UHGV virus genome: UHGV-0124552
DNA: 16,824 bases
Reading direction: 5' to 3' (one strand)
Origin: a virus
The position numbers and the translations under genes are program-made. This document shows, one piece after another, positions 504-16,824 of the stretch; position 1 is the stretch's first letter, and each line of letters begins with the position of its first letter. Below the pieces are notes generated by a model. That model was not told the DNA's origin, ran no database searches, and worked only from the letters and a program-made list of their open reading frames with translations.

Positions 504-1535
504 TCAAAAACTTGCTATTGATGTTGGTAGTGTTGCCAGCGGATTAAACCGTAATGCAGTTTCCAGGTGATCCGGTGCTAGATGTGCGTAACGCATAGTC
601 ATTTTTATGTCGTGATGTCCGAGGATTTTTTGCAAAGCAAGGATATTTCCACCCGACATCATAAAATGCGCCGCAAACGTATGGCGCAGAACGTGTGTCA
701 GTTGACCGCGAGGGAGCACGATAGACGTTTTTTCCATCACGGATAAAAATTGAAAATAGCAGTCTGTGAAGAAATTGAACCCATCGAGCGCCATGATCTC
801 TTCGTAAAGCTCTTTACTGATAGGGATGCTTCTGTTTTTCTTCCCCTTCGTTCTGACAAAGGTAATTCGGTATTTGGTCACCTGTGAGCGGGTAAGGTTT
901 ATTGCTTCTCGCCAGCGTGCGCCTGTGCTTAAGCATATCTTGACTACCAGTGCCAGAATTGGGTCCTGACGTTTGCAATCATCCAGCAGTTCAACAATCT
1001 GCTCATGGGTAAGCCATGCCATCTCTTTTTCTGCGATGGTGAATTTTCGCATGTTCTCCAGTGGGTTTGGATACGACCATTCGCCCAGGCGGGATAGTTC
1101 GCTAAAAACACTACTTAGATAGCTTTGCTCCAGGTTAATGGTGACCGGGCTGGCCCCTTTCTTCCATTTCTCGCTGAAGTAGATCTCACCTGTCAGTCGT
1201 TTATCTCGATAATGGGCAAACATTTTAGATGTGAGATCGGTTGCAAGGGGATTGCCCAGAGCGTCAACCATCAGCAGCAATTTGTCATAGACATGCTGCC
1301 CAGCAGTCAGAGATTTACCATGTAGTTTGAACCATAGCTCAACCACGTCTTTCAGGGTTCGACGATCTACTGATTCGCCCAGCCAGGGCTTTGCTTCGGT
1401 TTCTTCCATCGTGTGACGCTCAAAAGCCAGTGCTTCGCCTTTGGTGGCGAATTGTTTACGCACACGACGCCCACTACGTCCGGCGGGGTAACATTCGCAA
1501 AGCCATTTTCCTGTGGTGAGTTTTCGTACTGCCAT
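504..1535 (-). CDS. int: Tyrosine recombinase / phage integrase, P2/186 Int family
   Basis: N-terminus MAVRKL..GKWLCECYPAGRSGRRVRKQF closely resembles P2/186 Int (recalled from memory). C-terminal catalytic region LRHTFAAHF ... MRYAHL. ATG at 1535 has a GGAGGG RBS 8 nt upstream; the longer track ORF starting at 1613 is probably an over-extension. Confidence 0.9.
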   Translation of the reverse strand: MAVRKLTTGKWLCECYPAGRSGRRVRKQFATKGEALAFERHTMEETEAKPWLGESVDRRTLKDVVELWFKLHGKSLTAGQHVYDKLLLMVDALGNPLATDLTSKMFAHYRDKRLTGEIYFSEKWKKGASPVTINLEQSYLSSVFSELSRLGEWSYPNPLENMRKFTIAEKEMAWLTHEQIVELLDDCKRQDPILALVVKICLSTGARWREAINLTRSQVTKYRITFVRTKGKKNRSIPISKELYEEIMALDGFNFFTDCYFQFLSVMEKTSIVLPRGQLTHVLRHTFAAHFMMSGGNILALQKILGHHDIKMTMRYAHLAPDHLETALRFNPLATLPTSIASF

Positions 1536-1721
1536 AAAAAATGCCCTCCAATAGAGAGCATTTTTACTGTATGTATAACCAGTGTCAATGTATGAAATCT
1601 TGCGACCATACATCTCACTGAAGCCATAATGAAGTTGGCTATTTTTTGCTATGTGAGTATGTGACTTTTGCGGTTAGCCTGCGGCTCATTGTTATATTAG
1701 GCGCAGATATAAAAGCAAAAA

Positions 1722-1928: not shown

Positions 1929-2498
1929 TTACCTAACGTACTTAATTGTTAAACTTATAATTTTTCCAATTATTTCAACATCTTCTATCTTGCACTCGAA
2001 GGATCTGTTTCCACCTTCAACGAAGATTCTTCCACCGGGTAAACGAGTAATGTCGCGGATTGTTATTTCGCCATCAATACTTATTACCCATTTACCATCA
2101 CGTATATCATCAAATTCTTTATCACAAATAAATTCAGAATTGTTATCTGTGATGACAAAAGGTTTTTTAAACGTAGAGGGTAGAAATCCCTTATCAAAAA
2201 TATAAAAACCGTCTTCACGCAAGGCACCATCAGATAATACATATTTAGCAACTTCCATCGTATTTGTATTACCTGAAGTTTGCTTTGAACCATGTCCAGT
2301 TGTGAGCCAATTAAGCGAGGTGCCCGTTTCAAGGGCGCACTGGATTACCCATTCTGCTGGGAATGAGTCACGCATGTAGCGTGTAGCGAGTGTACTTTTA
2401 GAGATTCCTAAATGATCGCACAACGCCTGTCGAGTTTTGAATCCATAAGCTTCTACCATGCGCTCTATAGCGCCTCGTCCGCCTTTCTCCAAATTCAT
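1929..2498 (-). CDS. cI: Phage 186 CI-type immunity repressor (N-terminal HTH plus C-terminal oligomerisation domain)
   Basis: About 190 aa, with HTH-like segment TRQALCDHLGISKSTLATRYMRDS. Sits divergent to apl-cII as in phage 186. ATG at 2498 with GGAG 5 nt upstream; the track start at 2504 is GTG. Confidence 0.75.
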   Translation of the reverse strand: MNLEKGGRGAIERMVEAYGFKTRQALCDHLGISKSTLATRYMRDSFPAEWVIQCALETGTSLNWLTTGHGSKQTSGNTNTMEVAKYVLSDGALREDGFYIFDKGFLPSTFKKPFVITDNNSEFICDKEFDDIRDGKWVISIDGEITIRDITRLPGGRIFVEGGNRSFECKIEDVEIIGKIISLTIKYVR

Positions 2499-2522
2499 GG
2501 TCACTCCAAGTGAACTTTTATC

Positions 2523-4428: not shown

Positions 4429-5282
4429 GCACCATCCTGAAATGGGCGGGAAATAAAACCGCCATTATGTCCGAACTGAAAAAACACCTTCCTGCTGGCC
4501 CGCGACTGGTTGAACCTTTCGCGGGTTCCTGTGCTGTGATGATGGAGACGGATTACCCCAGCTATCTGGTTGCGGATATTAATCCTGATTTAATCAACCT
4601 CTATAAAAAGGTTGCCGCTGATTGTGAATCGTTTATATCTCGCGCCAGAGTTTTATTTGAGATCGCAAACAGGGAGGTGGTTTATTACAACATAAGGCAG
4701 GAGTTTAATTACTCCACTGAAATTACTGATTTCATGAAAGCGGTATATTTCCTGTATCTCAATCGTCACGGTTACCGTGGTTTATGTCGCTATAACAAGA
4801 GCGGGCATTTCAACATTCCCTACGGTAATTATAAAAATCCGTATTTCCCTGAAAAAGAAATTCGCGCATTTGCAGAAAAGGCCCAGCGAGCAACGTTTAT
4901 CTGCGCCAGCTTTGATGAAACGCTGGCGATGTTGAAGGCGGGGGATGTGGTGTATTGCGATCCGCCGTATGACGGTACGTTTTCCGGCTATCACACTGAC
5001 GGCTTCACTGAAGATGACCAGTATCACCTGGCATCTGTTCTTGAACATCGGTCATCAGAAGGACATCCGGTCATTGTTTCTAACAGTGACACATCCCTGA
5101 TCCGTTCGCTGTATCGCAATTTTACTCACCACTACATCAAGGCAAAACGCAGCATCGGTGTGGCAGCTGGCGAGGGTAAATCAGCAACAGAAATCATTGC
5201 TGTTTCCGGGCCGCGCTGCTGGGTGGGATTTGATTATTCGCGTGGCGTGGATAGTTCTGCCGTGTACGGAGTACGTGCATGA
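4425..5282 (+). CDS. dam: DNA N6-adenine methyltransferase (Dam-like)
   Basis: N-terminal LKWAGNK and catalytic CDPPYDG (DPPY motif). GGAGG RBS 7 nt before ATG 4425. Stop overlaps the gpA start (ATGA). Confidence 0.85.
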
Positions 5283-7693
5283 GTCATGCCGATATGAACA
5301 ACTGCTGCGGCTTTAACGAGGCTGCCGCAGCATTCTCATGGAACAGCCCGAAAAAGGCCATTAACCCTTATCTGGACCCGGCGGAAGTTGCGCCGGTTTC
5401 TACGCTTTCAAACCTGATCACTCTGTACGCTGCCGATAACGAGCAGGAACAGTTGCGCCGCGAGGCACTGAGTGATCAGGTCTGGGAGCGTTATTTCTTT
5501 AATGAATCACGTGATCCTGTCCAGCGCGAAATGGAGCAGGATAAGCTCATTAGCCGGGCAAAGCTGGCGCATGAGCAGCAGCGTTTTAATTCAGACATGG
5601 TCATTCTGGCGGACGTCAACGCCCAGCCTTCCCATATCAGCAAGCCGCTGATGCAACGTATTGAATACTTCAGCAGCCTGGGCAGGCCAAAGGCTTATTC
5701 CCGCTATTTACGTGAGACGATTAAGCCATGTCTGGAACGACTGGAGCATGTACGCGACAGTCAGCTATCTGCATCTTTTCGCTTTATGGCAAGCCATGAA
5801 GGGCTGGATGGCCTGCTGATCCTGCCTGAAATGAGTCAGGATCAGGTGAAACGCCTGTCCACCCTGGTAGCTGCGCATATGAGTATGTGCCTTGATGCAG
5901 CTTGTGGTGATTTGTATGCCACCGATGACGTTAAGCCAGAAGAAATCCGCAAGACATGGGAAAAGGTGGCAGCGGAAACCCTGCGTCTGGATGTCATCCC
6001 ACCTGCGTTTGAGCAACTCCGTCGGAAAAGAAACCGCCGTAAACCCGTGCCCTATGAACTCATTCCGGGTTCGCTGGCGCGTATGTTGTGCGCCGACTGG
6101 TGGTATCGGAAATTATGGAAGATGCGTTGCGAATGGCGGGAAGAGCAGTTGCGCGCTGTTTGCCTGGTCAGCAAAAAAGCATCTCCTTATGTCAGCTATG
6201 AAGCCGTGATGCATAAACGTGAGCAGCGCCGTAAGTCGCTGGAGTTTTTCCGTTCTCATGAACTGGTGAACGAAGACGGCGACACGCTGGACATGGAGGA
6301 TGTGGTAAACGCCAGCAGCAGCAACCCTGCGCATCGCCGCAATGAGATGATGGCCTGTGTTAAAGGTCTGGAGCTTATCGCGGAAATGCGCGGTGACTGC
6401 GCCGTTTTCTACACTATCACCTGTCCGTCGCGTTTCCATTCCACGCTAAATAACGGCAGACCAAACCCGACCTGGACAAACGCGACGGTAAGACAAAGCA
6501 GCGATTATCTGGTCGGCATGTTTGCTGCATTTCGTAAGGCGATGCACAAAGCCGGGTTGCGCTGGTATGGCGTGCGGGTGGCTGAGCCGCATCATGATGG
6601 CACAGTTCACTGGCACCTGTTGTGTTTCATGCGCAAAAAAGACCGCCGTGCCATCACTGCATTACTGCGTAAGTTTGCCATCCGTGAAGACCGCGAGGAG
6701 CTGGGCAATAACACTGGGCCGCGCTTTAAGTCTGAGTTGATTAACCCGCGCAAAGGAACGCCGACAAGCTACATCGCGAAATATATCAGTAAGAACATTG
6801 ACGGTCGTGGTCTGGCTGGCGAGATCAGCAAGGAAACGGGTAAATCTCTGCGTGATAACGCTGAATACGTGAATGCCTGGGCGTCTCTGCATCGTGTTCA
6901 GCAATTCCGCTTCTTTGGTATTCCGGGGCGTCAGGCTTACCGTGAACTTCGCTTGCTGGCTGGTCAGGCGGCAAGGCAACAGGGTGACAAAAAAGCAGGT
7001 GCGCCGGTACTGGATAACCCGCGTCTTGATGCCATTCTGGCTGCTGCTGATGCTGGTTGTTTTGCCACCTACATCATGAAGCAGGGCGGCGTACTGGTTC
7101 CCCGTAAATATCACCTCATCAGAACCGCTTATGAAATCAACGAAGAGCCGACCGCCTATGGCGATCACGGCATTCGTATTTATGGCATCTGGTCACCCAT
7201 TGCAGAGGGCAAGATCTGCACTCATGCAGTGAAGTGGAAAATGGTTCGTAAAGCCGTTGACGTTCAGGAGGCGGCAGCCGACCAGGGCGCTTGCGCCCCT
7301 TGGACTCGTGGCAATAACTGTCCCCTTGCTGAAAATTTGTACCAACAAGGGAAAGACAAATCAGCTGATGGGGATACCAGAACGGATATCACCCGTATGG
7401 ATGACAAGGAGTTGCACGATTACCTGCACAGTATGAACAAAAAAGAACGCCGGGAACTGGCTGCAAGGTTACGCCTGGTGAAACCGAAACGGCGTAGAGA
7501 CTACAAACAGCGAATTACAGACCATCAACGACAGCAGCTCGTCTATGAACTGAAGTCCAGAGGATTTGACGGCAGCGAGAAAGAGGTCGATTTACTCCTT
7601 CGCGGCGGCAGCATTCCGTCAGGAGCAGGCCTGCGTATTTTCTATCGGAACCAGCGTTTGCAGGAAGATGATAAGTGGCGGAACCTGTATTAA
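5279..7693 (+). CDS. A: P2 gpA-family rolling-circle replication initiation endonuclease
   Basis: 804 aa, with HUH-type motif VHWHLLCF and active-site tyrosine motif YIAKYISKN. Last gene of the early operon. Confidence 0.85.
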
Positions 7694-7785
7694 TTACGCG
7701 GATTAACAATTCGTGCTCTTAATAATACCAGGCATATCAGGCTGATGAACGTAAAAAAACGTTTTACATCAGTAAGATTATTATA

Positions 7786-7805
7786 TACTGTAAATATAAA
7801 CAGTG
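7786..7805 (+). promoter_or_regulatory. LexA (SOS) box overlapping a candidate promoter for the downstream Tum/DinI-like genes
   Basis: TACTGTAAATATAAACAGTG fits the CTGT-N8-ACAG LexA consensus (TACTGTATATATATACAGTA) very closely. Possible -35 TTTACA (7763-7768) and -10 TATACT (7784-7789). Confidence 0.7.
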
Positions 7806-7846
7806 GTTATGTATACAGTATTGCTTGTGGTGTCATAGGAGGAAAG

Positions 7847-8035
7847 ATGCAGGACTATTTTTTGGAGTCTTTGAAGCTCCAACGCATTGATTTTTTTCTT
7901 AAGCTTGTAGCGGCTAGTGAGTGTAGTGATGAAGAGAAGGGGCTGGCCCTGCAGTGGGTTTCTGAATTGACAGATGAACTCATGGCAAAAATCAGAAGCC
8001 ACGAATACAACCGCTCAATGGATGTCATCAGCTGA
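7847..8035 (+). CDS. Small SOS-controlled protein (62 aa), possibly the N-terminal antirepressor part of a split 186 Tum-like protein
   Basis: GGAGG RBS 5-6 nt before ATG 7847, directly downstream of the LexA box. Followed within 10 nt by a DinI-like ORF. Confidence 0.45.
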   Translation: MQDYFLESLKLQRIDFFLKLVAASECSDEEKGLALQWVSELTDELMAKIRSHEYNRSMDVIS

Positions 8036-8045
8036 GGGGACTTTT

Positions 8046-8279
8046 ATGCGCATTGAAATAATGATCGATAAAGAGCAGAAGATTAGCCAGTCTATCCTAG
8101 ACGCCCTTGAATCAGAGCTTTACCGCAATCTGCGCCCCCTGTATCCCAAAACGGTAATTCGTATCCGTAAAGGTAGCTCTAACGGTGTGGAACTGACCGG
8201 ACTGCAACTGGACGAAGAAAGGAAACAAGTGATGAAAATTATGCAGAAGGTGTGGGAAGACGACAGCTGGCTGCATTAA
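8046..8279 (+). CDS. DinI/Tum/MsgA-family protein (DinI-like)
   Basis: MRIEIMIDK ... ILDALESEL ... KVWEDDSW aligns by eye to E. coli DinI (MRIEVTIAK ... IDALAGEL ... ETWESADDW). GAGGGG RBS 6 nt upstream. Confidence 0.7.
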   Translation: MRIEIMIDKEQKISQSILDALESELYRNLRPLYPKTVIRIRKGSSNGVELTGLQLDEERKQVMKIMQKVWEDDSWLH

Positions 8280-8663
8280 GAAACGTTGCTGGCGTCTGAA
8301 CTTGCTTCTGGCGTCAGCAAGGTTGAACAACGAGCTATGCGAGGCGTTAGCCATCTGATCAAAAGACATCAAATATCATATTGTATATCGTGGTCAAACG
8401 CTGGAAACAATCATTCCCGATCAGAGGGGCTTCTTTCAATGTCCAAAAGAGTGAGATAGAGGATACAGGATGGGAAGAGCTTTTGATTAATTATCGTCCA
8501 AGTTTTTCAAAAGCTTCTTATCTGGCGGTCGATACATGATTTACTGTTGGATATGGTATTTAAAATTAATCTTTACACTGTGGTATATGCAGAATAGGAT
8601 ATTATCAATACAATCAAACTGTTTTCATACGGTTATTAATATTGCAATGTTATAGGTAATGTC

Positions 8664-9782
8664 ATGTATCTTTTCAAGTATTACCGTCCGGACTTCTTCT
8701 TCGAGAAAGCTATTCGTTATAATGAATTATATTTTTCCGCTCCTGCGCAATTGAATGATCCCAATGATCTCAATATAGATTATCGCTTCGATAATAAATT
8801 GAAATTATGGGATATTTTATTGCGTTCTCCTTGCGATAAATCCTATAAAAATTTGAGTCACATATTGGATTTGAGTAATTTGAAAATACATAAGGGATTG
8901 AATCGTATTTTTAGAGGAAAAAAAATAAAAAGTAGCATTGAGTCATTAGATAGCCTGTTCGACTCACACGTTGATGAGATACGTAAGATCATAGATGATG
9001 GTTTACTACCTATCAATGTGATTAATTCTGCTATTTATGGAAATATTCCTGAACCACGCCAATATTTGGTTTCACTTTGCGAGAACAGTATCAAAGAAAG
9101 GTTGTATAGGAAAATAGTTCCTGCAGTATTCAGTGTGTCATTTTCAGCTAATGCGTTAGATCGTATGATGTGGGCGCATTATGCTGCTGGCTTTAGTGGT
9201 TGTGTTGTGATTTATGAAACGCAGGATTTTAATATTGATGGTATACCCTATACTGGAATGAAGCTAAGAGAAAATTTATTTTCATCAGATAAATTTAATT
9301 TTCCAGTTAAGCCAATAAAATATAGTAATCAGGCTAAAGAGGTTTCACTTCTAGACCCAAGCGCAAATGTTGCAGAGTTATTTTTAACTAAAAATAGATT
9401 TTGGAGATATGAAGCTGAATATCGAATGTTTATTCCGGAGGCAAATGCAGGAATAGGGAGTGAGCGGCATGTTCAAAGACGCGTAAATCGAAATATTGGA
9501 CATATTTTTCATCATGATGCTAATGTTGTTAAAGGGATCATTTTTGGTCCTAGAATGTGTGAAATGAAAAAAGAAAGCATATGGAATTGTATCAAGTCAA
9601 ATATGGAGAATTCAAATTCAACAATATGTTATTTTTTTGACTCTGAGTTATCAGCATCAGGAAAGATTACTATTTCAAAAGGGCAACGAGCGGAAAAAAT
9701 GAAAAATTTCACTTTGTTCAGGAACAAGTTAAGTCAGACGGAAATGGCTAAAGTTTTGAAGGAAATTGGCATTACGAACTAA
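8664..9782 (+). CDS. DUF2971-like protein (372 aa) of unknown function; candidate single-gene defence/abortive-infection protein
   Basis: N-terminal YRPDFFFEKAIRYNELYFSAPAQLNDPND, central VFSVSFSANALDRMMWAHYAAGFSGCVVIY and C-terminal KNRFWRYEAEYRMF match the motif pattern I associate with DUF2971. Very AT-rich, preceded by about 380 bp of AT-rich non-coding DNA and followed by a terminator. Confidence 0.6.
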   Translation: MYLFKYYRPDFFFEKAIRYNELYFSAPAQLNDPNDLNIDYRFDNKLKLWDILLRSPCDKSYKNLSHILDLSNLKIHKGLNRIFRGKKIKSSIESLDSLFDSHVDEIRKIIDDGLLPINVINSAIYGNIPEPRQYLVSLCENSIKERLYRKIVPAVFSVSFSANALDRMMWAHYAAGFSGCVVIYETQDFNIDGIPYTGMKLRENLFSSDKFNFPVKPIKYSNQAKEVSLLDPSANVAELFLTKNRFWRYEAEYRMFIPEANAGIGSERHVQRRVNRNIGHIFHHDANVVKGIIFGPRMCEMKKESIWNCIKSNMENSNSTICYFFDSELSASGKITISKGQRAEKMKNFTLFRNKLSQTEMAKVLKEIGITN

Positions 9783-9848
9783 CCTAACAACAGTGCATGC
9801 CTATGCTGCCTGAATTTGCATGACCGTTTGAGGATCGTTTTTGCTAAG

Positions 9849-9875
9849 GCCCGCCAGAACTGGCGGGCTTTTGCG
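9849..9875 (+). terminator. Rho-independent terminator after the DUF2971-like gene
   Basis: GCCCGCCA (9849-9856), loop gaac, TGGCGGGC (9861-9868), then TTTTGCG. Confidence 0.65.
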
Positions 9876-9917
9876 TGGATCAGGCACCTGCATGAAAACC
9901 ACTACACAAAGCGGGCA

Positions 9918-9936
9918 GGCGTGGCGGGGATACGAG
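9918..9936 (+). other. cos: cos-like sequence (possible cohesive-end site or remnant of a P2/186-type phage)
   Basis: GGCGTGGCGGGGATACGAG matches the remembered 186 cos GGCGTGGCGGGGAAAGCAT in the first 13 nt (15 of 19 overall). It lies in a short GC-rich island between two AT-rich insertions, in the same orientation relative to Q as P2 cos. Confidence 0.4.
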
Positions 9937-10007
9937 CGCGCGCAGCGGGTGGAAACTCAGATTTGAATGTTGTATAAAAGATGGGATCATTCTGAGGAAA
10001 AGTGGAT

Positions 10008-10913
10008 ATGAAAAAGAAAACTATTCCGGAGTTGCAGAAGCAAAATCTGGCAAATTTAATTAAAAGTCGGCTTTTTCAACAGAAAAATAAAAATAAAGTT
10101 ACTGTTTTCCTTTGCGGGGGCGATTTGAATGATCCGTTTTTTTGTAGAAATAAAGTTAAAAGAGTGTTGGAAACACATCCCAAAATAGAAATATTCTATC
10201 CTGAGGAGTTGTTTGATGAGCTTTTGTATGGACAAGGTCAGCATAGTCTTTTAAGTTTGGAGAATATTTTAGCTGATTCAGTCGATGTTATTATTATTAT
10301 TCCTGAAAGCCCAGGGTCTTTCGCTGAATTGGGCGCATTTTCAAATAATGAAAAACTGTGCAAAAAAATGATATGTCTTCAGGATGACAAATTCAAACTT
10401 AAAAAAAGCTTTCTTAATTATGGGCCTATAAAACTGCTTCGGCGTGCTAATAGCGGTGCAGTATTGCGAGGAGATTTGTCGACTCTTGAAAGCTTGAGTA
10501 CAGGTAAAGCTTTTTATAATAGAATTATAAAAAGTATTAATGACATCAAAAAAAATAACCCAGTTAATCACTCAATAGATAATATTCTTCACGCTCGGCG
10601 TTTTATACTGCCATGTATATATTTGATGGATGGTATAGATAATATACTTCTATATGAGCTATTACATTTGGTGACTAAGAAAGATGCTATTCTTTGTGAA
10701 ATTATCGTTAAGTCTGTTATTTCAAGCTTGATTAAAGAGTCAATAATTAGGCGTTCAGTTCAAGGATACCATATTACAGAAATTGGTATGCAATACGTTC
10801 TTGAGCATTTTGATCGAAAGGCTTTGGACAATCTACGACTGGATATGATGAACTTCGAAAATCGTGGTAAAACAATACTCCACTATGATAGGATGCGTTT
10901 TGCGCACCCTTAG
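10008..10913 (+). CDS. Retron effector: nucleoside 2-deoxyribosyltransferase-like (NDT-like) protein, as in the Ec86 (Retron-Eco1) family
   Basis: VFLCGG ... VIIIIPESPGSFAELGAFS resembles the NDT-like fold motif with a catalytic Glu. Its stop codon lies inside the retron a1 repeat, immediately upstream of msr-msd and the RT. GAGGA RBS 9 nt before ATG 10008; the track start at 10002 is GTG. Confidence 0.65.
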   Translation: MKKKTIPELQKQNLANLIKSRLFQQKNKNKVTVFLCGGDLNDPFFCRNKVKRVLETHPKIEIFYPEELFDELLYGQGQHSLLSLENILADSVDVIIIIPESPGSFAELGAFSNNEKLCKKMICLQDDKFKLKKSFLNYGPIKLLRRANSGAVLRGDLSTLESLSTGKAFYNRIIKSINDIKKNNPVNHSIDNILHARRFILPCIYLMDGIDNILLYELLHLVTKKDAILCEIIVKSVISSLIKESIIRRSVQGYHITEIGMQYVLEHFDRKALDNLRLDMMNFENRGKTILHYDRMRFAHP

Positions 10914-11061
10914 CGAGTGGCTTCTCCGGAAGTTCACTGGACAGTGTTTCGCTGTCCTACATACAATCTGAAGTTTTACCAGTTCCCTCATTGAAAGGAG
11001 AACATCTCCCGATGTTCTCCTTTCACTTCGGAATCTGATTTTTATGACGTAAGGGTGCGCT
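10901..11061 (+). ncRNA. msr-msd: Retron msr-msd non-coding RNA (template/primer for msDNA), Ec86-like
   Basis: Inverted repeats a1 TGCGCACCCTTA (10901-10912) and a2 TAAGGGTGCGC (11050-11060). The 5' 17 nt TGCGCACCCTTAGCGAG and the 3' TGACGTAAGGGTGCGC are identical to the Ec86 ncRNA as I remember it. msr hairpin GGACAG-tgtttcg-CTGTCC (10939-10957). Long msd hairpin GAAAGGAGAACATC-tccc-GATGTTCTCCTTTC (10993-11024). Confidence 0.75.
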
Positions 11062-11062
11062 C

Positions 11063-12037
11063 ATGACTTCCGCAACACCATCTCAGGTTTTTCGCTTACG
11101 CAATCTTGGATTGCCTGTTATGTCCTCTTTAGAGGATATGTCTAGAGAAATGCGTTTATCAGTAGACATACTCCGGTTGTACATTTATCGTGCTGACAAA
11201 TACTATAAGGTTTATTCGTTGCCAAAAAGAGATGGCAAGAGATCCCGCATCATTTCACAGCCATCACGTGAGCTGAAGGCATTGCAAGCTTGGGTGTTAA
11301 GAAACATCCTTGATAAGTTACATTCATCCCCATTTTCCAAAGGCTTTGAAAAAGGGCAATCAATATTAAATAATGCCAGCCCACATGTAGGAGCTAACTA
11401 TGTATTAAATATTGATTTAGAAGATTGTTTTAATACTATTCTGATAGAGAAAATCTATACTGTTTTTCATTCTCTGGGGTATAACTCTACTATTTCTAAT
11501 GCTTTAGCAAGATTGTGTTCATTTAATGGTTCGCTACCTCAAGGTGCACCATCTTCTCCAAAGATTGCGAATCTTGTTTTAACTAAATTAGATTATAGAA
11601 TACATGGATATGCAGGTAGTAAGGGGATCGTATTTACTCGATATGCCGATGATTTGACTTTATCTGCTCAATCTTTAAAAAAAATACTTAAAGCTAAGTC
11701 ATTTGTATGCTCTATAATACCAAGTGAATCTTTGAAGGTTAATTATAATAAAGTTGCGATTCATGGCCCCAAAGCAAGGAAGGAGGTTACTGGGCTCGTT
11801 TTATCTATTGATAATGTTGGAGTTGGCAGAATACGTTATCGCGAAATTAGAAGTAAGATCCATTATCTGGCGGTAAAAAGAAATTCTGATTTCGAACATG
11901 TTAAAGGACTTATTGCGTTTGTTAAAAGTGTAGACAAGAAAAACTATAGAAAATTGATGACTTTCTCAAATAAAATGTCTGAAGCATATGGGGTTGATCT
12001 AAGTGTTCTTTTTCCTAAAAACAAAAAGGCCATTTAA
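11063..12037 (+). CDS. ret: Retron reverse transcriptase (Ec86 / Retron-Eco1-like)
   Basis: N-terminus FRLRNLGLPVM and QPSRELKALQAWVLRNILDKL closely resemble Ec86 RT (from memory). Also QGAPSSPKIANL, the catalytic YADD (RYADDLTLSA) and the retron-specific VTG motif (KEVTGLVL). Start codon abuts the a2 repeat. Confidence 0.85.
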   Translation: MTSATPSQVFRLRNLGLPVMSSLEDMSREMRLSVDILRLYIYRADKYYKVYSLPKRDGKRSRIISQPSRELKALQAWVLRNILDKLHSSPFSKGFEKGQSILNNASPHVGANYVLNIDLEDCFNTILIEKIYTVFHSLGYNSTISNALARLCSFNGSLPQGAPSSPKIANLVLTKLDYRIHGYAGSKGIVFTRYADDLTLSAQSLKKILKAKSFVCSIIPSESLKVNYNKVAIHGPKARKEVTGLVLSIDNVGVGRIRYREIRSKIHYLAVKRNSDFEHVKGLIAFVKSVDKKNYRKLMTFSNKMSEAYGVDLSVLFPKNKKAI

Positions 12038-12050
12038 TGGCCTTTTTGTT
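12023..12050. terminator. Bidirectional rho-independent terminator shared by the convergent ret and Q genes
   Basis: AAAAAGGCCAT-tta-ATGGCCTTTTT palindrome with A/T runs on both sides. The ret stop codon lies in the loop and the Q stop immediately beyond. Confidence 0.55.
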
Positions 12051-12052
12051 TA

Positions 12053-13081
12053 TTAGGTAATTGAATAACTCACGAAATTAATAACTTCTTCATTTATCCA
12101 TTCGTTCAGCTCTTCTAGTCTTTTTTGTAAAGGGATGAGTTCATTCCTCACAAAAACATTAGCAGCTTTCTCTACATCCCCAAACCCCCCAATATTATTC
12201 GGCATGATCCCCATCATCTGCGGCGGCACGCGGTGCGCAGCCATCATGTCATCCCGGCTCACGTTCTTGATATTCAGAAACTCATCCTTCGCCGCGACTT
12301 CTGACAATGGGATGATCTGAAGTCCGTCCTTTTTGCCGTTAGGCGAGTACATAAACAGATTGCGGAAGTTACCTGGTCCTTTGGCGCTTTTCATCGTATT
12401 GCGGAGGTTGTTCACATCCTCCTGGTTCTGCGCAGCATCGGTCATGTACATGATGAAGCCTGCATGACTGCCGTTAATGTAATACTTGCGGCGGAACAGC
12501 GTGGCGGACTCGTTGAGCAGAGCTGACGGAATGGCAGAAAGATAACCGGGCAGGCCGTAGATCTCCTGGTTAATGTCCGGTTCCATCAGATGAAAAATGC
12601 TGCCTTTCGTGAACTGATACGGCTGGGTTGTCATACCGTATTGCACAAACCAGTAGGTATCCAGGTCTAACCCGCGTCGGGTGTATTTTGCCAGTGCAGG
12701 CTCAAGGGCGATAACTTCACCGAAGCGGTTCGTGCGTTTCTCCAGGTAGGCGTTACCAAAAACCAGATAGTCCTGCACAAAACGCGAAAAAGCCTGCTGG
12801 CTGAGTAGCGGGTGAGGGATGTAGGTGCTGGTCAGAATGTTGCATTTCACCGCAATTGGTGAACTGTGATGCACGGCAGCGCGGAAGGTGCGCGCCAGTC
12901 CGTCAAAGCTGACAGGAGGCTCATACCAGCGATCTGTCTGTACGCATTCCACATAGTCCAGCAGTTCGCGGCGGTCAAGTACAGGAACGGGATCACCGAA
13001 GCTGAATGCTTCGGCTGAAGTCTGGCTTTTATGCTTGAGCTGATTCGTCGCCGCAGCGCGGTTTTTCTTAATCTTTCCCAT
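12053..13081 (-). CDS. Q: Portal protein (P2 gpQ-like)
   Basis: About 342 aa, size and sequence style of P2 gpQ. Convergent with ret and divergent from O, as in P2. ATG at 13081 overlaps the P stop (ATGA). The last ~25 codons (12053-12130) are AT-rich, unlike the rest of the gene. Confidence 0.8.
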   Translation of the reverse strand: MGKIKKNRAAATNQLKHKSQTSAEAFSFGDPVPVLDRRELLDYVECVQTDRWYEPPVSFDGLARTFRAAVHHSSPIAVKCNILTSTYIPHPLLSQQAFSRFVQDYLVFGNAYLEKRTNRFGEVIALEPALAKYTRRGLDLDTYWFVQYGMTTQPYQFTKGSIFHLMEPDINQEIYGLPGYLSAIPSALLNESATLFRRKYYINGSHAGFIMYMTDAAQNQEDVNNLRNTMKSAKGPGNFRNLFMYSPNGKKDGLQIIPLSEVAAKDEFLNIKNVSRDDMMAAHRVPPQMMGIMPNNIGGFGDVEKAANVFVRNELIPLQKRLEELNEWINEEVINFVSYSIT

Positions 13082-14847
13082 CAAAAAATCTCCACAATAT
13101 TGCTGGTATTGGCGGATTCGCCCTGCAGCGGTTCGTTAAACAATGCGTGCATCGTTGCCCAGGCCAGATCGGCGTGGCTGGCTTCTTCGCTGCGGCTGGC
13201 TTCATAGGTCGGGCGGTTGCCGCTGGCGGTGGTGGCGCGACGGATTGCCATGAATGACTGCGCAATGTCGCTGTGCCCGGCGTCAAACTCCAGACGGCGG
13301 TGGCTGATAATGTCGTAGGCCTTGAGTACCAGAGCGTTTTTAACGTTGGGGTTGTAGACAAACTCCCGGACGGCTGGAAAAAACGCTTTCACGTTCTCAT
13401 AAACTCCGTGACCGACACCCGTCGAGTCGATGCCGATATATGTCACGTTGTACTGTTCGGTCAGTTTTTTGATGGCGTCCGCCTGGGCGCGGAAGTCCAT
13501 CCCGCGCCACTGGTGGCGCTCAAGAATACGGAACTTACCGCCCGGCACGGCTGGCGGTGCCACCACCACGCATCCGGCGCTGTCGCCGTTCTGCGTACCT
13601 TTTGCCGGGTCATAACCGATCCACACTTCGCGCCACCCAAACGGGCGAAGGGCCAGTGCATGAAAGTCGGTCCAGACTTCCCAGCTGTCCACCATGCACG
13701 CCTGCAGCTCGCTGAGCGGAAACACGGACGCGAGATCGTCCACAAACTCGCACATCAGCAGGTTCTGGTATTCGTCCGGGCTGTACTCCATGCGTAGTTG
13801 GTCGAGGTCGAACAGGTTACAGCCGCCGCGCACCGCATCTTCCACGGTGACTATCTGGCGGTATTGCCCGTCTGCGCACAGCAGGCCGGGGGCCAGATTG
13901 CTGTGGGACAGGTCGATGTCCACCTTGTCGGCTTTGTTGCGTCCACGGTTGAACAGCGCACCGGACCAGAACGGATAAGCACTGTGGGTCAGGCTGGATG
14001 GCGTGGAAAAATAGGTTTGTCGCCATTTTTTGTGAATAGCCATACCGGAAGCCACTTTGCGCAGCTCCTGGAATTTCGGTATCCAGAAATATTCATCCAG
14101 ATACAGGTTGCCGTGGTAACTCTGGGCAGTGCGGGCATTGGTGCCGAGGAAATACAGTGTGGCCCCGTTGGGAAGCACCATCGGATCGCCTTTCAGCTCC
14201 ACTTCCACTTCTTTGGCGAAGTCGATGATGTACTGCTTAAAGACGTGCGCCTGTGCCTTACTGGCAGAAAGGAAAATCTGGTTACGTCCGGTTAGCAGGG
14301 CGTCAATCAGGGCTTCACGGGCAAAATAGAAGGTCGCGCCGATCTGGCGTGACTTCAGCAGGTTGCGGATGCGGTTGGTTTTTCCGGCTTCCCACCAGTG
14401 ACGCTGGTAGTTGAACATGGAGGAATGGAAGATTTCTTCCAGCTTCTCAATCTGTTCATCGGTGAAAACATTCTTTTCAGGCTGACGGCGCGGGCCTTTG
14501 TTGCGGTTGGCGACGTTAGGGTTTAAATCGGCTTCGTTGCCGCCATTGTTAAACTTGCCGATCCGCGCGTGGCGCTCCGACTGGCGCGCCAGCAGATCAA
14601 TTTCTTTGAAATCTTTCCCTTCTTTGTGCTCCTTCATAATGAGCTGGCAGTAACGTGCGGCGGTGGTGAGCTGCATCTGATCCAGCGGCCCATAGTCACC
14701 CCACTTGTCGCGTTTTTTCCAGCTGTGAACGGTTGCAACTTTCTCGCCCAGCATTTCAGCAATGCGGGCTACGCGGTATCCCTGAAAGTACAGCAGCATG
14801 GCCTGCCGACGGGGATCGAGATCTGCGGGTGTCAGTGTGGTGTTCAT
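13081..14847 (-). CDS. P: Terminase large (ATPase) subunit (P2 gpP-like)
   Basis: 588 aa (P2 gpP is about 590). N-terminus LDPRRQAMLLYFQGYRVARIAEMLG resembles gpP. Upstream of Q on the same strand. Confidence 0.85.
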   Translation of the reverse strand: MNTTLTPADLDPRRQAMLLYFQGYRVARIAEMLGEKVATVHSWKKRDKWGDYGPLDQMQLTTAARYCQLIMKEHKEGKDFKEIDLLARQSERHARIGKFNNGGNEADLNPNVANRNKGPRRQPEKNVFTDEQIEKLEEIFHSSMFNYQRHWWEAGKTNRIRNLLKSRQIGATFYFAREALIDALLTGRNQIFLSASKAQAHVFKQYIIDFAKEVEVELKGDPMVLPNGATLYFLGTNARTAQSYHGNLYLDEYFWIPKFQELRKVASGMAIHKKWRQTYFSTPSSLTHSAYPFWSGALFNRGRNKADKVDIDLSHSNLAPGLLCADGQYRQIVTVEDAVRGGCNLFDLDQLRMEYSPDEYQNLLMCEFVDDLASVFPLSELQACMVDSWEVWTDFHALALRPFGWREVWIGYDPAKGTQNGDSAGCVVVAPPAVPGGKFRILERHQWRGMDFRAQADAIKKLTEQYNVTYIGIDSTGVGHGVYENVKAFFPAVREFVYNPNVKNALVLKAYDIISHRRLEFDAGHSDIAQSFMAIRRATTASGNRPTYEASRSEEASHADLAWATMHALFNEPLQGESANTSNIVEIF

Positions 14848-14989: not shown

Positions 14990-15883
14990 ATGACAGTGAA
15001 AGCAAAGCGTTTTCGCATCGGGGTGGAAGGTGCCACCACCGACGGACGCGAAATCCAGCGTGAATGGCTGGAACAGATGGCAGCCAGCTACAACCCGGCG
15101 GTGTATACCGCGCTGATTAACCTTGAGCACATCAAGTCTTATCTGCCGGACAGCACCTTTAACCGCTACGGCAAGGTGACGGCGCTGTTTGCTGAAGAAA
15201 TCACGGAAGGTCCGCTGGCAGGCAAGATGGCGCTGTATGCCGACGTTGAGCCAACAGAGTCCCTGGTGGAGCTGGTGAAAAAAGGCCAGAAATTATTCAC
15301 CTCTATGGAAGTCAGCCCAAAGTTTGCTGATACGGGCAAAGCCTACCTGGTCGGGCTGGCTGCCACTGATGACCCTGCCAGTCTGGGCACTGAAATGCTG
15401 ACATTCAGCGCCAGTGCAGCCCATAACCCGCTGGCAAACCGCAAGCAGAATCCCGCCAATCTCTTTACCGCCGCAGAGGAAACGGTGATCGAACTGGAAG
15501 AAATCCAGGAGGACAAGCCGTCCCTGTTTGCCCGCGTCACGGCGCTGTTCACCAAAAAAGAGCAGTCCGACGATGCCCGGTTCTCTGATGTGCATAAGGC
15601 CGTGGAGCTGGTCGCCACTGAGCAGCAGAACCTGAGCGCACGGACCGAAAAATCCCTGTCTGAGCAGGAAGAACGTCTGTCTGAGCTGGAGACTGCCCTG
15701 CAGGCACAGCAGACCGCCTTTAACGAACTGGTGAATAAGCTGAGTCATGAAGACAGCCGCCAGGACTACGCGAAGCTGACCATCAATGGTGAGGTGCTCT
15801 ATGAAGTGGACCTTATCAACATGGTGGAAATTGTGGACGGTGTGGACCTGATGGAAGCGCACCGCAACGCCCTCGGCCTCTGA
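14990..15883 (+). CDS. O: Capsid scaffolding protein (P2 gpO-like)
   Basis: FRIGVEGATTDGREI ... INLEH ... TSMEVSPKFADTGKAYLVGLAATDDPASLGTE ... ASDDARFSDVH aligns by eye along the length of remembered P2 gpO. GGAG RBS 8 nt upstream. Confidence 0.85.
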   Translation: MTVKAKRFRIGVEGATTDGREIQREWLEQMAASYNPAVYTALINLEHIKSYLPDSTFNRYGKVTALFAEEITEGPLAGKMALYADVEPTESLVELVKKGQKLFTSMEVSPKFADTGKAYLVGLAATDDPASLGTEMLTFSASAAHNPLANRKQNPANLFTAAEETVIELEEIQEDKPSLFARVTALFTKKEQSDDARFSDVHKAVELVATEQQNLSARTEKSLSEQEERLSELETALQAQQTAFNELVNKLSHEDSRQDYAKLTINGEVLYEVDLINMVEIVDGVDLMEAHRNALGL

Positions 15884-15937: not shown

Positions 15938-16080
15938 ATGAGCGATAAGCAGACTGAAAAGACCATTCAACTGGATACCCCCATCAAGCGCGGTAAAACA
16001 GAAATCACCGAAATTGTGCTGCGTAAACCGCAGTCCGGTGCGCTGCGCGGTACACGCCTGCAGGCCATTATGGATACCTG
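15938..16080 (+). pseudogene. Truncated tail assembly chaperone gpE-like N-terminal fragment (E')
   Basis: First ~47 aa (TIQLDTPIKRGKTEITEIVLRKPQSGALRGTRLQAIMD) fit the gpE-type tail assembly chaperone pattern. Beyond about 16080 the frame reads into unrelated residues before stopping at 16246. Confidence 0.5.
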
Positions 16081-16383
16081 GTGGGTACGGATGAAAACGT
16101 GCTGGTACTTAATCGCACTTATGCCAACCGGAGCAACGCTGAACGGGCAGCGAAAATGCAGTGGGAACGCCTGCAACGCGGCGTTGCGTCATTCTCGCTA
16201 CAACTGGCGGAAGGGCGGGCAGATCTCTACACAGAAATGCCTGTGAAGGTCAGTGGCTTTAAACAGCCGATAGATGATGCGGAATGGACCATTACGACTC
16301 TGACGCATACCGTCAGCCCGGATAACGGTTTTACGACCAGTCTGGAGCTTGAAGTGAGGATTGATGATTTCGAAATGGAATGA
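16081..16383 (+). pseudogene. C-terminal fragment of tail protein gpD (D')
   Basis: ERAAKMQWERLQRG ... RADLYTEMPVKVSGFK ... GFTTSLELEV resembles the C-terminus of P2 gpD (from memory). It lacks the ~290 N-terminal residues and is out of frame with the upstream E' fragment. Confidence 0.55.
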
Positions 16384-16473
16384 TTCTTCGCAATGGAGAA
16401 CTTTTAAGTTTGCAAAATGGAATAATGCGGTATCATTATTGTGAATTTAGCAAAAATGGGGAGAGCTCGAAAA

Positions 16474-16692
16474 ATGATGATTTGCCCACTGTGTGGAAGT
16501 GCCGCCCATACTCGCAGCAGTTTTCAGGTATCTTCATTGACCAAAGAGCGTTACAACCAGTGCCAGAACATTAACTGCAGCCATACTTTTGTTACCCATG
16601 AAACTTTTGTTCGTTCGATTGCAACGCCAAAAGAGTCAAATCCGGTTCAGCCGCATCCAATGAAATCAGGACAGGTGGCGCTCTCTCTTTGA
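16474..16692 (+). CDS. ogr: Ogr-family zinc-finger late gene transcriptional activator
   Basis: 72 aa; CPLCGSAAHTRSS ... KERYNQCQNINCSHTF ... RPHP closely matches remembered P2 Ogr (CPLCQHAAHARTS ... KERYHQCQNVNCSATF ... RPHP). ATG at 16474; the track start at 16441 is GTG. Confidence 0.9.
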   Translation: MMICPLCGSAAHTRSSFQVSSLTKERYNQCQNINCSHTFVTHETFVRSIATPKESNPVQPHPMKSGQVALSL

Positions 16693-16715: not shown

Positions 16716-16778
16716 CGTTAAAGAATAGTGCTTCTAACATCATGATTTTAAACAGCTTAAATTTCAGACAACAAAAAA

Positions 16779-16821
16779 CCCATCAACCTTGAACCGAAAT
16801 GGCGGGGTTGATGGGCTCCAC
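16779..16821 (-). terminator. Rho-independent terminator-like hairpin in the right flank
   Basis: cccatcaacc (16779-16788) pairs with ggttgatggg (16806-16815) across a 17-nt loop. On the - strand the stem is followed by TTTTTTGTTG. The loop is long, so confidence is moderate. Confidence 0.35.
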
Positions 16822-16824
16822 AAA

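Follow-up and report, generated by a model that had tools for sequence, protein, structure and literature searches.

A GC-rich island in a deleted P2-family prophage is very probably an intact cos site that separates two cargo slots

Cohesive ends of the P2 family (Peduoviridae) are annotated in the records of P2 (GGCGAGGCGGGGAAAGCAC) and 186 (GGCGTGGCGGGGAAAGCAT), and a 55-bp cos region is needed for packaging according to Ziermann and Calendar (1990), as cited in passages of PMC3931495 and PMC9122126. Another allele was named with Salmonella phage SEN8: its genome announcement gives 'ggcgtggcggggatacgag' as the cos site, assigned during annotation (PMC5427200), and the SEN8 record opens exactly at the 19-mer GGCGTGGCGGGGATACGAG, which it annotates as a putative cos site. 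Related cos alleles are on record for PSP3/SEN1, SEN4/5 and Smp131. The interval between the replication gene (gpA) and the portal gene (gpQ) is presented, in passages of Rousset et al. 2022 (PMC9122126) and of a 2026 NAR study (PMC13586616), as a defence hotspot of P2-like phages that lies next to cos and includes retrons in its cargo; these passages also report that P2-like hotspots frequently carry two or more systems. Already on record are the cos allele, the hotspot and, in Escherichia coli B, a retron (Ec86) at exactly the position considered below. The locus that we describe is a cos site of this kind and its biology is already known; to this we add a small refinement, namely that the hotspot consists of two sub-slots, one on each side of cos, with independently varying contents.

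The DNA analysed, virus genome UHGV-0124552 (16,824 nucleotides; hereafter the window), is a P2/186-like prophage. On the left it encodes an integrase (504-1613, minus strand), a CI repressor (1929-2504, minus strand), the replication gene A (5279..7693, plus strand; Pfam Phage_GPA, 1.4e-127), which is the left landmark of the gpA–gpQ hotspot, and a DinI/Tum-like gene (7974..8279, plus strand; Pfam DinI, 2.6e-22), the last backbone gene before the cargo, in the same position as tum in 186 and the DinI gene in Fels-2. On the right lie the portal gene Q (12053..13084, minus strand; Pfam Phage_portal) and the terminase large subunit gene P (13081..14847, minus strand; Pfam Terminase_6N, Terminase_6C and Terminase_5), followed by the scaffold gene O (14990-15883, plus strand), the reading frame of which ends in a tail-tube (FII) C terminus, an N-terminal fragment of gpE (15938-16246), a C-terminal fragment of gpD (16081-16383) and an intact Ogr-like gene (16441-16692). 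The capsid, N, M (small terminase), L, lysis and tail genes are absent from the window. Because a 26-nt direct repeat (88% identical; attL/attR) occurs at both ends, at 30-55 and 16758-16783, the whole element of about 16.7 kb lies inside the window. At its 3' terminator end, the sRNA gene rybB (16770-16824; Rfam RF00110, 62.6 bits) overlaps the right repeat; the gene is cut by the window end and is the sole real Rfam match in the window.

A reading of the sequence alone had proposed a cos-like remnant in a GC-rich segment between two AT-rich cargo blocks. The composition is as described: although the intergenic gap as a whole (9783-10001, 219 bp) has a GC content of 0.52, the block at 9793-9944 reaches 0.58, compared with 0.33 for the gene on its left and 0.35 for the retron cassette on its right. 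The 19-mer GGCGTGGCGGGGATACGAG, the Fels-2/SEN8 allele of the cohesive end, occurs in the window as a single exact copy on the plus strand; the earlier reading had found it but implied a start one base too far to the right, the real position being 9918-9936. None of 200 dinucleotide-preserving shuffles contained a match to it, with up to three mismatches permitted. The 186 and P2 ends against which it had been compared proved to be those annotated in the records, and the record comparison gives the predicted identity of the first 13 nucleotides to the 186 end, with 15/19 positions identical overall (positions 14, 16, 17 and 19 differ) and 14/19 identical to the P2 end. Alignment of the island to P2-family cos regions, which had been put forward as the way to check the proposal, shows that it is homologous to those of coliphage 186 (Eganvirus), P2 and the P2 satellite P4. 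The site lies between the replication and accessory region and Q, and its orientation relative to Q is, as had been suggested, that of P2, and also that of 186: the 19-mer is on the top strand, with Q to its right on the opposite strand. The cos-to-Q gap measures 167 bp in P2, 176 bp in 186 and 2116 bp in the window.

When the island was compared by blastn with 50,697 phage records, 89 of them matched, and all those among the matches listed are P2-like Peduoviridae. The best matches cover query bases 10-168 at 88–92% identity and include Fels-2, SopEPhi, RE2010, the plaque-isolated Yersinia phage MLG42, the E. coli phages 500465-1 and 813R9 and many Klebsiella phages. In a multiple alignment, the 19-mer is identical (19/19) in Fels-2, SopEPhi, MLG42 and 813R9. 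Because these phages and SEN8 all share it, the six terminal bases that are unlike 186, which had been suspected of being degenerate, represent another, fully conserved allele and not decay. At least 120 IMG/VR viral contigs also contain the exact 19-mer; at 121 IMG/VR sites among the matches listed, oriented on the 19-mer, the order is A (plus), cos, Q (minus) wherever A or Q is detectable. In one contig (3300011853_000021) the 19-mer is present twice, the two copies facing opposite ways at a distance of about 3.2 kb, and DinI-side and Q-side neighbours accompany both; an assembly chimera or a pair of adjacent prophages may account for this. A literature search by sequence, on either strand, for experimental mapping of ends with this allele returned nothing beyond the SEN8 annotation. 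The closest relatives of the locus are SEN8/Fels-2 (Felsduovirus) and related Klebsiella, Yersinia and E. coli Peduoviridae, which share the identical 19-mer, the block of about 150 bp and its placement between DinI-side and Q-side cargo. The window differs from them in flank substitutions (13 of 153 positions relative to the family consensus, which is about the family median), in the cargo on both sides and in being a deleted prophage.

The conserved cos block (9793..9944, plus strand) is about 151–153 bp long and has sharp homology edges at about 9793 and 9944; it extends some 125 bp leftwards from the cut site and, on the other side, through the 19-mer and a further 7–8 bp. Across 115 distinct IMG/VR sequences among the matches listed, per-position conservation is high from 9793 to 9943 and falls to a background of about 0.35 just outside. 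Of 5426 complete E. coli genomes, 1249 have the block with the same boundaries; alignments to a spread sample of these begin at 9790-9795 and extend to about 9941-9955. Within it, the equivalent of the P2/P4 core (TGCATTAAAACC...GCGGGC, 19-mer, YGCGCGC) occupies about 55 bp at 9889..9943 on the plus strand (TGCATKAAAACC...GCGGGC, 19-mer, YGCGCGC), its limits being set by the P2–P4 identity track. The flanks of this core are also retained, with CTGCATGAAAACC and AAAGCGGGCA on the left and CGCGCGC on the right; in 186, GCGCGC stands to the right of the 19-mer. When the joined ends of 186 and P2 are included in the multiple alignment, both can be aligned to the left arm (...GTGCATGAAAACCACTACAYAAAGCGGGCA), and similarity across the clade ends 7–8 bases past the 19-mer, at CGCGCGC. 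The left arm matches 186 and P4 at 27/36 positions each; that of P2 has diverged beyond position -30. This asymmetry, with about 125 bp conserved to the left of the cut and 7 bp past the 19-mer, suggests that the information recognized by the terminase lies mainly on the left arm. GCATG/TGCAT motifs are repeated at 9795-9895 and conserved across the clade, and are visible too in 186, P2 and P4; they may be terminase-binding repeats.

The left arm also contains a G+C-rich hairpin, GGCCCGCCAGAACTGGCGGGC, followed by TTTT (9847..9870, plus strand; inverted repeat I5). Its stem positions are paired in 84–99% of 109 distinct family members among the matches listed; because the stem is nearly invariant within the clade, it offers little covariation evidence. 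P4, in which the upstream GCATG repeats are likewise present, also has a hairpin at the equivalent place, though not of the same sequence. Of the terminator that had been proposed in the island, the hairpin and T run are present, and a terminator role is probable by comparison with P2/186 biology. The hairpin does not appear in a simple terminator scan because its T run has just four residues; the scan, which used a consensus, listed a weak minus-strand hairpin at 9914-9899.

The slot to the left of cos, between A/DinI and the block, holds a DUF2971-like gene (8664..9782, plus strand), which falls just below the Pfam DUF2971 threshold and matches the PADLOC candidate defence family PDC-S31 (E = 1e-23). 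Its assignment to the A-to-cos slot holds; this interval carries tin/old in P2, on the opposite strand, and orf97, together with tum, in 186. The slot to the right, between the block and Q, holds a type II-A retron (9945..12052, plus strand; PADLOC and NCBIfam), also as had been proposed, and backbone homology resumes within the 3' end of Q, at about 12074-12138. The window has variable accessory or defence genes on both sides of cos. In 186, by contrast, the gap between cos and the portal gene (W/Q), towards which its site is oriented in the same way, is empty.

That the two cargos are independent insertions, as suggested earlier, follows from other genomes, in which each of them occurs either beside another partner or without one. 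In at least 21 E. coli genomes, the match to the window runs from 7700 to 9944 at 98–99.9% identity and then breaks off, so that the DUF2971 gene is followed by other right-hand cargo; in LD22-1, for example, the DUF2971 gene and cos are followed by an unrelated 380-aa gene. Conversely, the same retron lies after cos in VG888-46E9, where SIR2 and an ATPase precede it, and in strain H1, where two small unrelated genes do, and one IMG/VR locus combines an empty left slot (205 bp) with a right slot of retron size (2117 bp). Among the matches listed, 55 IMG/VR loci have measurable distances to both flanks, and these show 27 different left lengths, 41 right lengths and 50 distinct pairs, with an empty slot on the left in 11/55, on the right in 5/55 and on both sides in 1/55. 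The cos-to-Q slot is thus occupied in 50 of these 55 loci, as it is in E. coli B, and an occupied slot is normal in the Fels-2 clade rather than an oddity. Many P2-like prophages of E. coli have the DUF2971/PDC-S31 gene as a single-gene cassette, irrespective of the retron. The interval is the same as the published gpA–gpQ hotspot, which the passages cited above treat as one (PMC9122126; PMC13586616); our data support its division by the cos block into two sub-hotspots with independent exchange of cargo. Because the two blocks are separate cassettes, the DUF2971/PDC-S31 gene should not be counted with the retron system.

The retron cassette consists of an NDT-like effector (10008-10913, plus strand; PADLOC NDT_II-A, 2.6e-97), a reverse transcriptase (RT; 11063-12037, plus strand; PADLOC RT_II-A, 4.9e-123), both assigned by NCBIfam to the retron St85 family, and an msr-msd ncRNA between them (about 10900-11062, plus strand), which overlaps the 3' end of the effector gene. 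The ncRNA has a perfect 11-nt a1/a2 repeat (GCGCACCCTTA/TAAGGGTGCGC) at 10902-10912 and 11050-11060 and a classical retron fold (10900-11062, -73.7 kcal/mol, z = -9.4); an Rfam search of this interval gave no match. In the Ec86 (Retron-Eco1) locus of E. coli B, examined in C41(DE3), an identical 19-mer in the same cos block precedes effector, msr-msd, RT and then Q; the a1/a2 repeat is the same, and the cos-to-Q gap is 2141 bp compared with about 2117 bp in the window. That prophage is also deleted. It differs in its left-slot cargo and in its proteins, the RT being 59% and the effector 50% identical.

On this evidence, 9793-9944 is very probably the cos packaging site of a Fels-2/186-type P2-family prophage, intact by sequence, that splits the gpA–gpQ hotspot into two slots. 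It is hardly credible that the island is instead the msr-msd ncRNA of the retron, or a regulatory leader, with an incidental likeness to cos. Such a place would not be without parallel, because in the type II-A retrons Sen2 and St85 the ncRNA lies upstream of the effector gene. In the window, however, the a1/a2 repeats and msr/msd hairpins are absent from 9783-10001 and found between effector and RT, where E. coli B has the Ec86 ncRNA; moreover, the block stays conserved in phages that carry unrelated cargo to its right, and Rfam searches of the island at gathering and permissive thresholds returned nothing. A more substantial objection is that the site descends from cos but has decayed to the point at which terminase could no longer cut it. 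The prophage is indeed defective, with gpO fused to the tail-tube C terminus, E and D left as fragments and N, M, L, lysis and tail genes gone, and two substitutions in its flank are rare among the matches listed, where each of these positions is otherwise conserved in more than 95% of sequences (9810 A>C, 2/119; 9883 T>G, 1/119), both within GCATG/TGCAT motifs of the left arm. Yet the 19-mer and the 55-bp core are exactly as in working phages, the total divergence is no greater than is typical of the family, and the full 153-bp block, with both substitutions, is identical in LD22-1 and in a prophage of the same type in E. coli KFu015, which is apparently complete, with capsid, both terminase subunits, lysis and tail genes. 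It is because of this identity to a complete prophage that we do not adopt decay as the main reading, and we consider it unlikely. The same comparison shows that the lack of a cognate terminase pair in the window, where P is present and M is deleted together with N and L, concerns the prophage and not the identity of the site, because KFu015 has the identical block and M. The true remnant is the prophage, not, as had been suggested, cos.

With gpM, capsid and tail genes missing, cos in the window would be usable only through a helper phage, which raises the idea that the element, about 16.7 kb long, is maintained much as a satellite would be, as a defence island that depends on a helper and is mobilized through cos. 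It has kept int, CI, the replication genes, cos, Q, P, Ogr and the att repeats and carries two defence cargos, and several genomes carry different O-to-D deletions at the same rybB chromosomal site. If the idea held, a co-resident Fels-2-type phage would package the element, perhaps as a dimer of about 33 kb, close to one P2-sized genome (P2, 33.6 kb). But the O–FII deletion junction occurs in 0 of 5426 complete E. coli genomes, which gives no sign of spreading; no capsid-resizing or helper-exploitation genes are seen; and retention of cos is explained equally well by random deletion. We regard a satellite-like existence as very unlikely and retain an intact cos site in a deleted prophage as our interpretation.

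Going by homology to P2 and 186, the terminase of a productive member of this clade (large subunit gpP and small endonuclease subunit gpM) would recognize the block on circular phage DNA and nick the strands 19 nt apart at the edges of 9918-9936, leaving 19-nt 5' overhangs of GGCGTGGCGGGGATACGAG. The linear genome would then begin with the retron cassette (first 2.1 kb) and end with the DUF2971 gene (last 1.2 kb). Rightward transcription from the DinI/cargo operon is probably halted ahead of cos by the hairpin at 9847-9870. Since cos has to be retained, it would serve as a conserved anchor between two parts of the known gpA-to-gpQ accessory hotspot, and the cargo in each slot would be exchanged independently, most likely by recombination in the conserved flanks: DinI and the cos block on the left, the cos block and the 3' end of Q on the right. 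The value of the assignment lies mainly in annotation, because fixing cos also fixes the mature genome ends for this type of prophage. For counts that take each gene arrangement in the hotspot as a single 'system', it also matters that there are two slots around an anchor of 151 bp that cannot be lost.

At the far end of the right slot, a perfect AT-rich hairpin, AAAAAGGCCATTAAATGGCCTTTTT, with T and A runs on either side, lies at 12016-12056 between the stop codons of RT and Q. Rfam gave only spurious low-score matches there, and the hairpin looks like a bidirectional terminator common to the convergent retron and Q–P transcripts.
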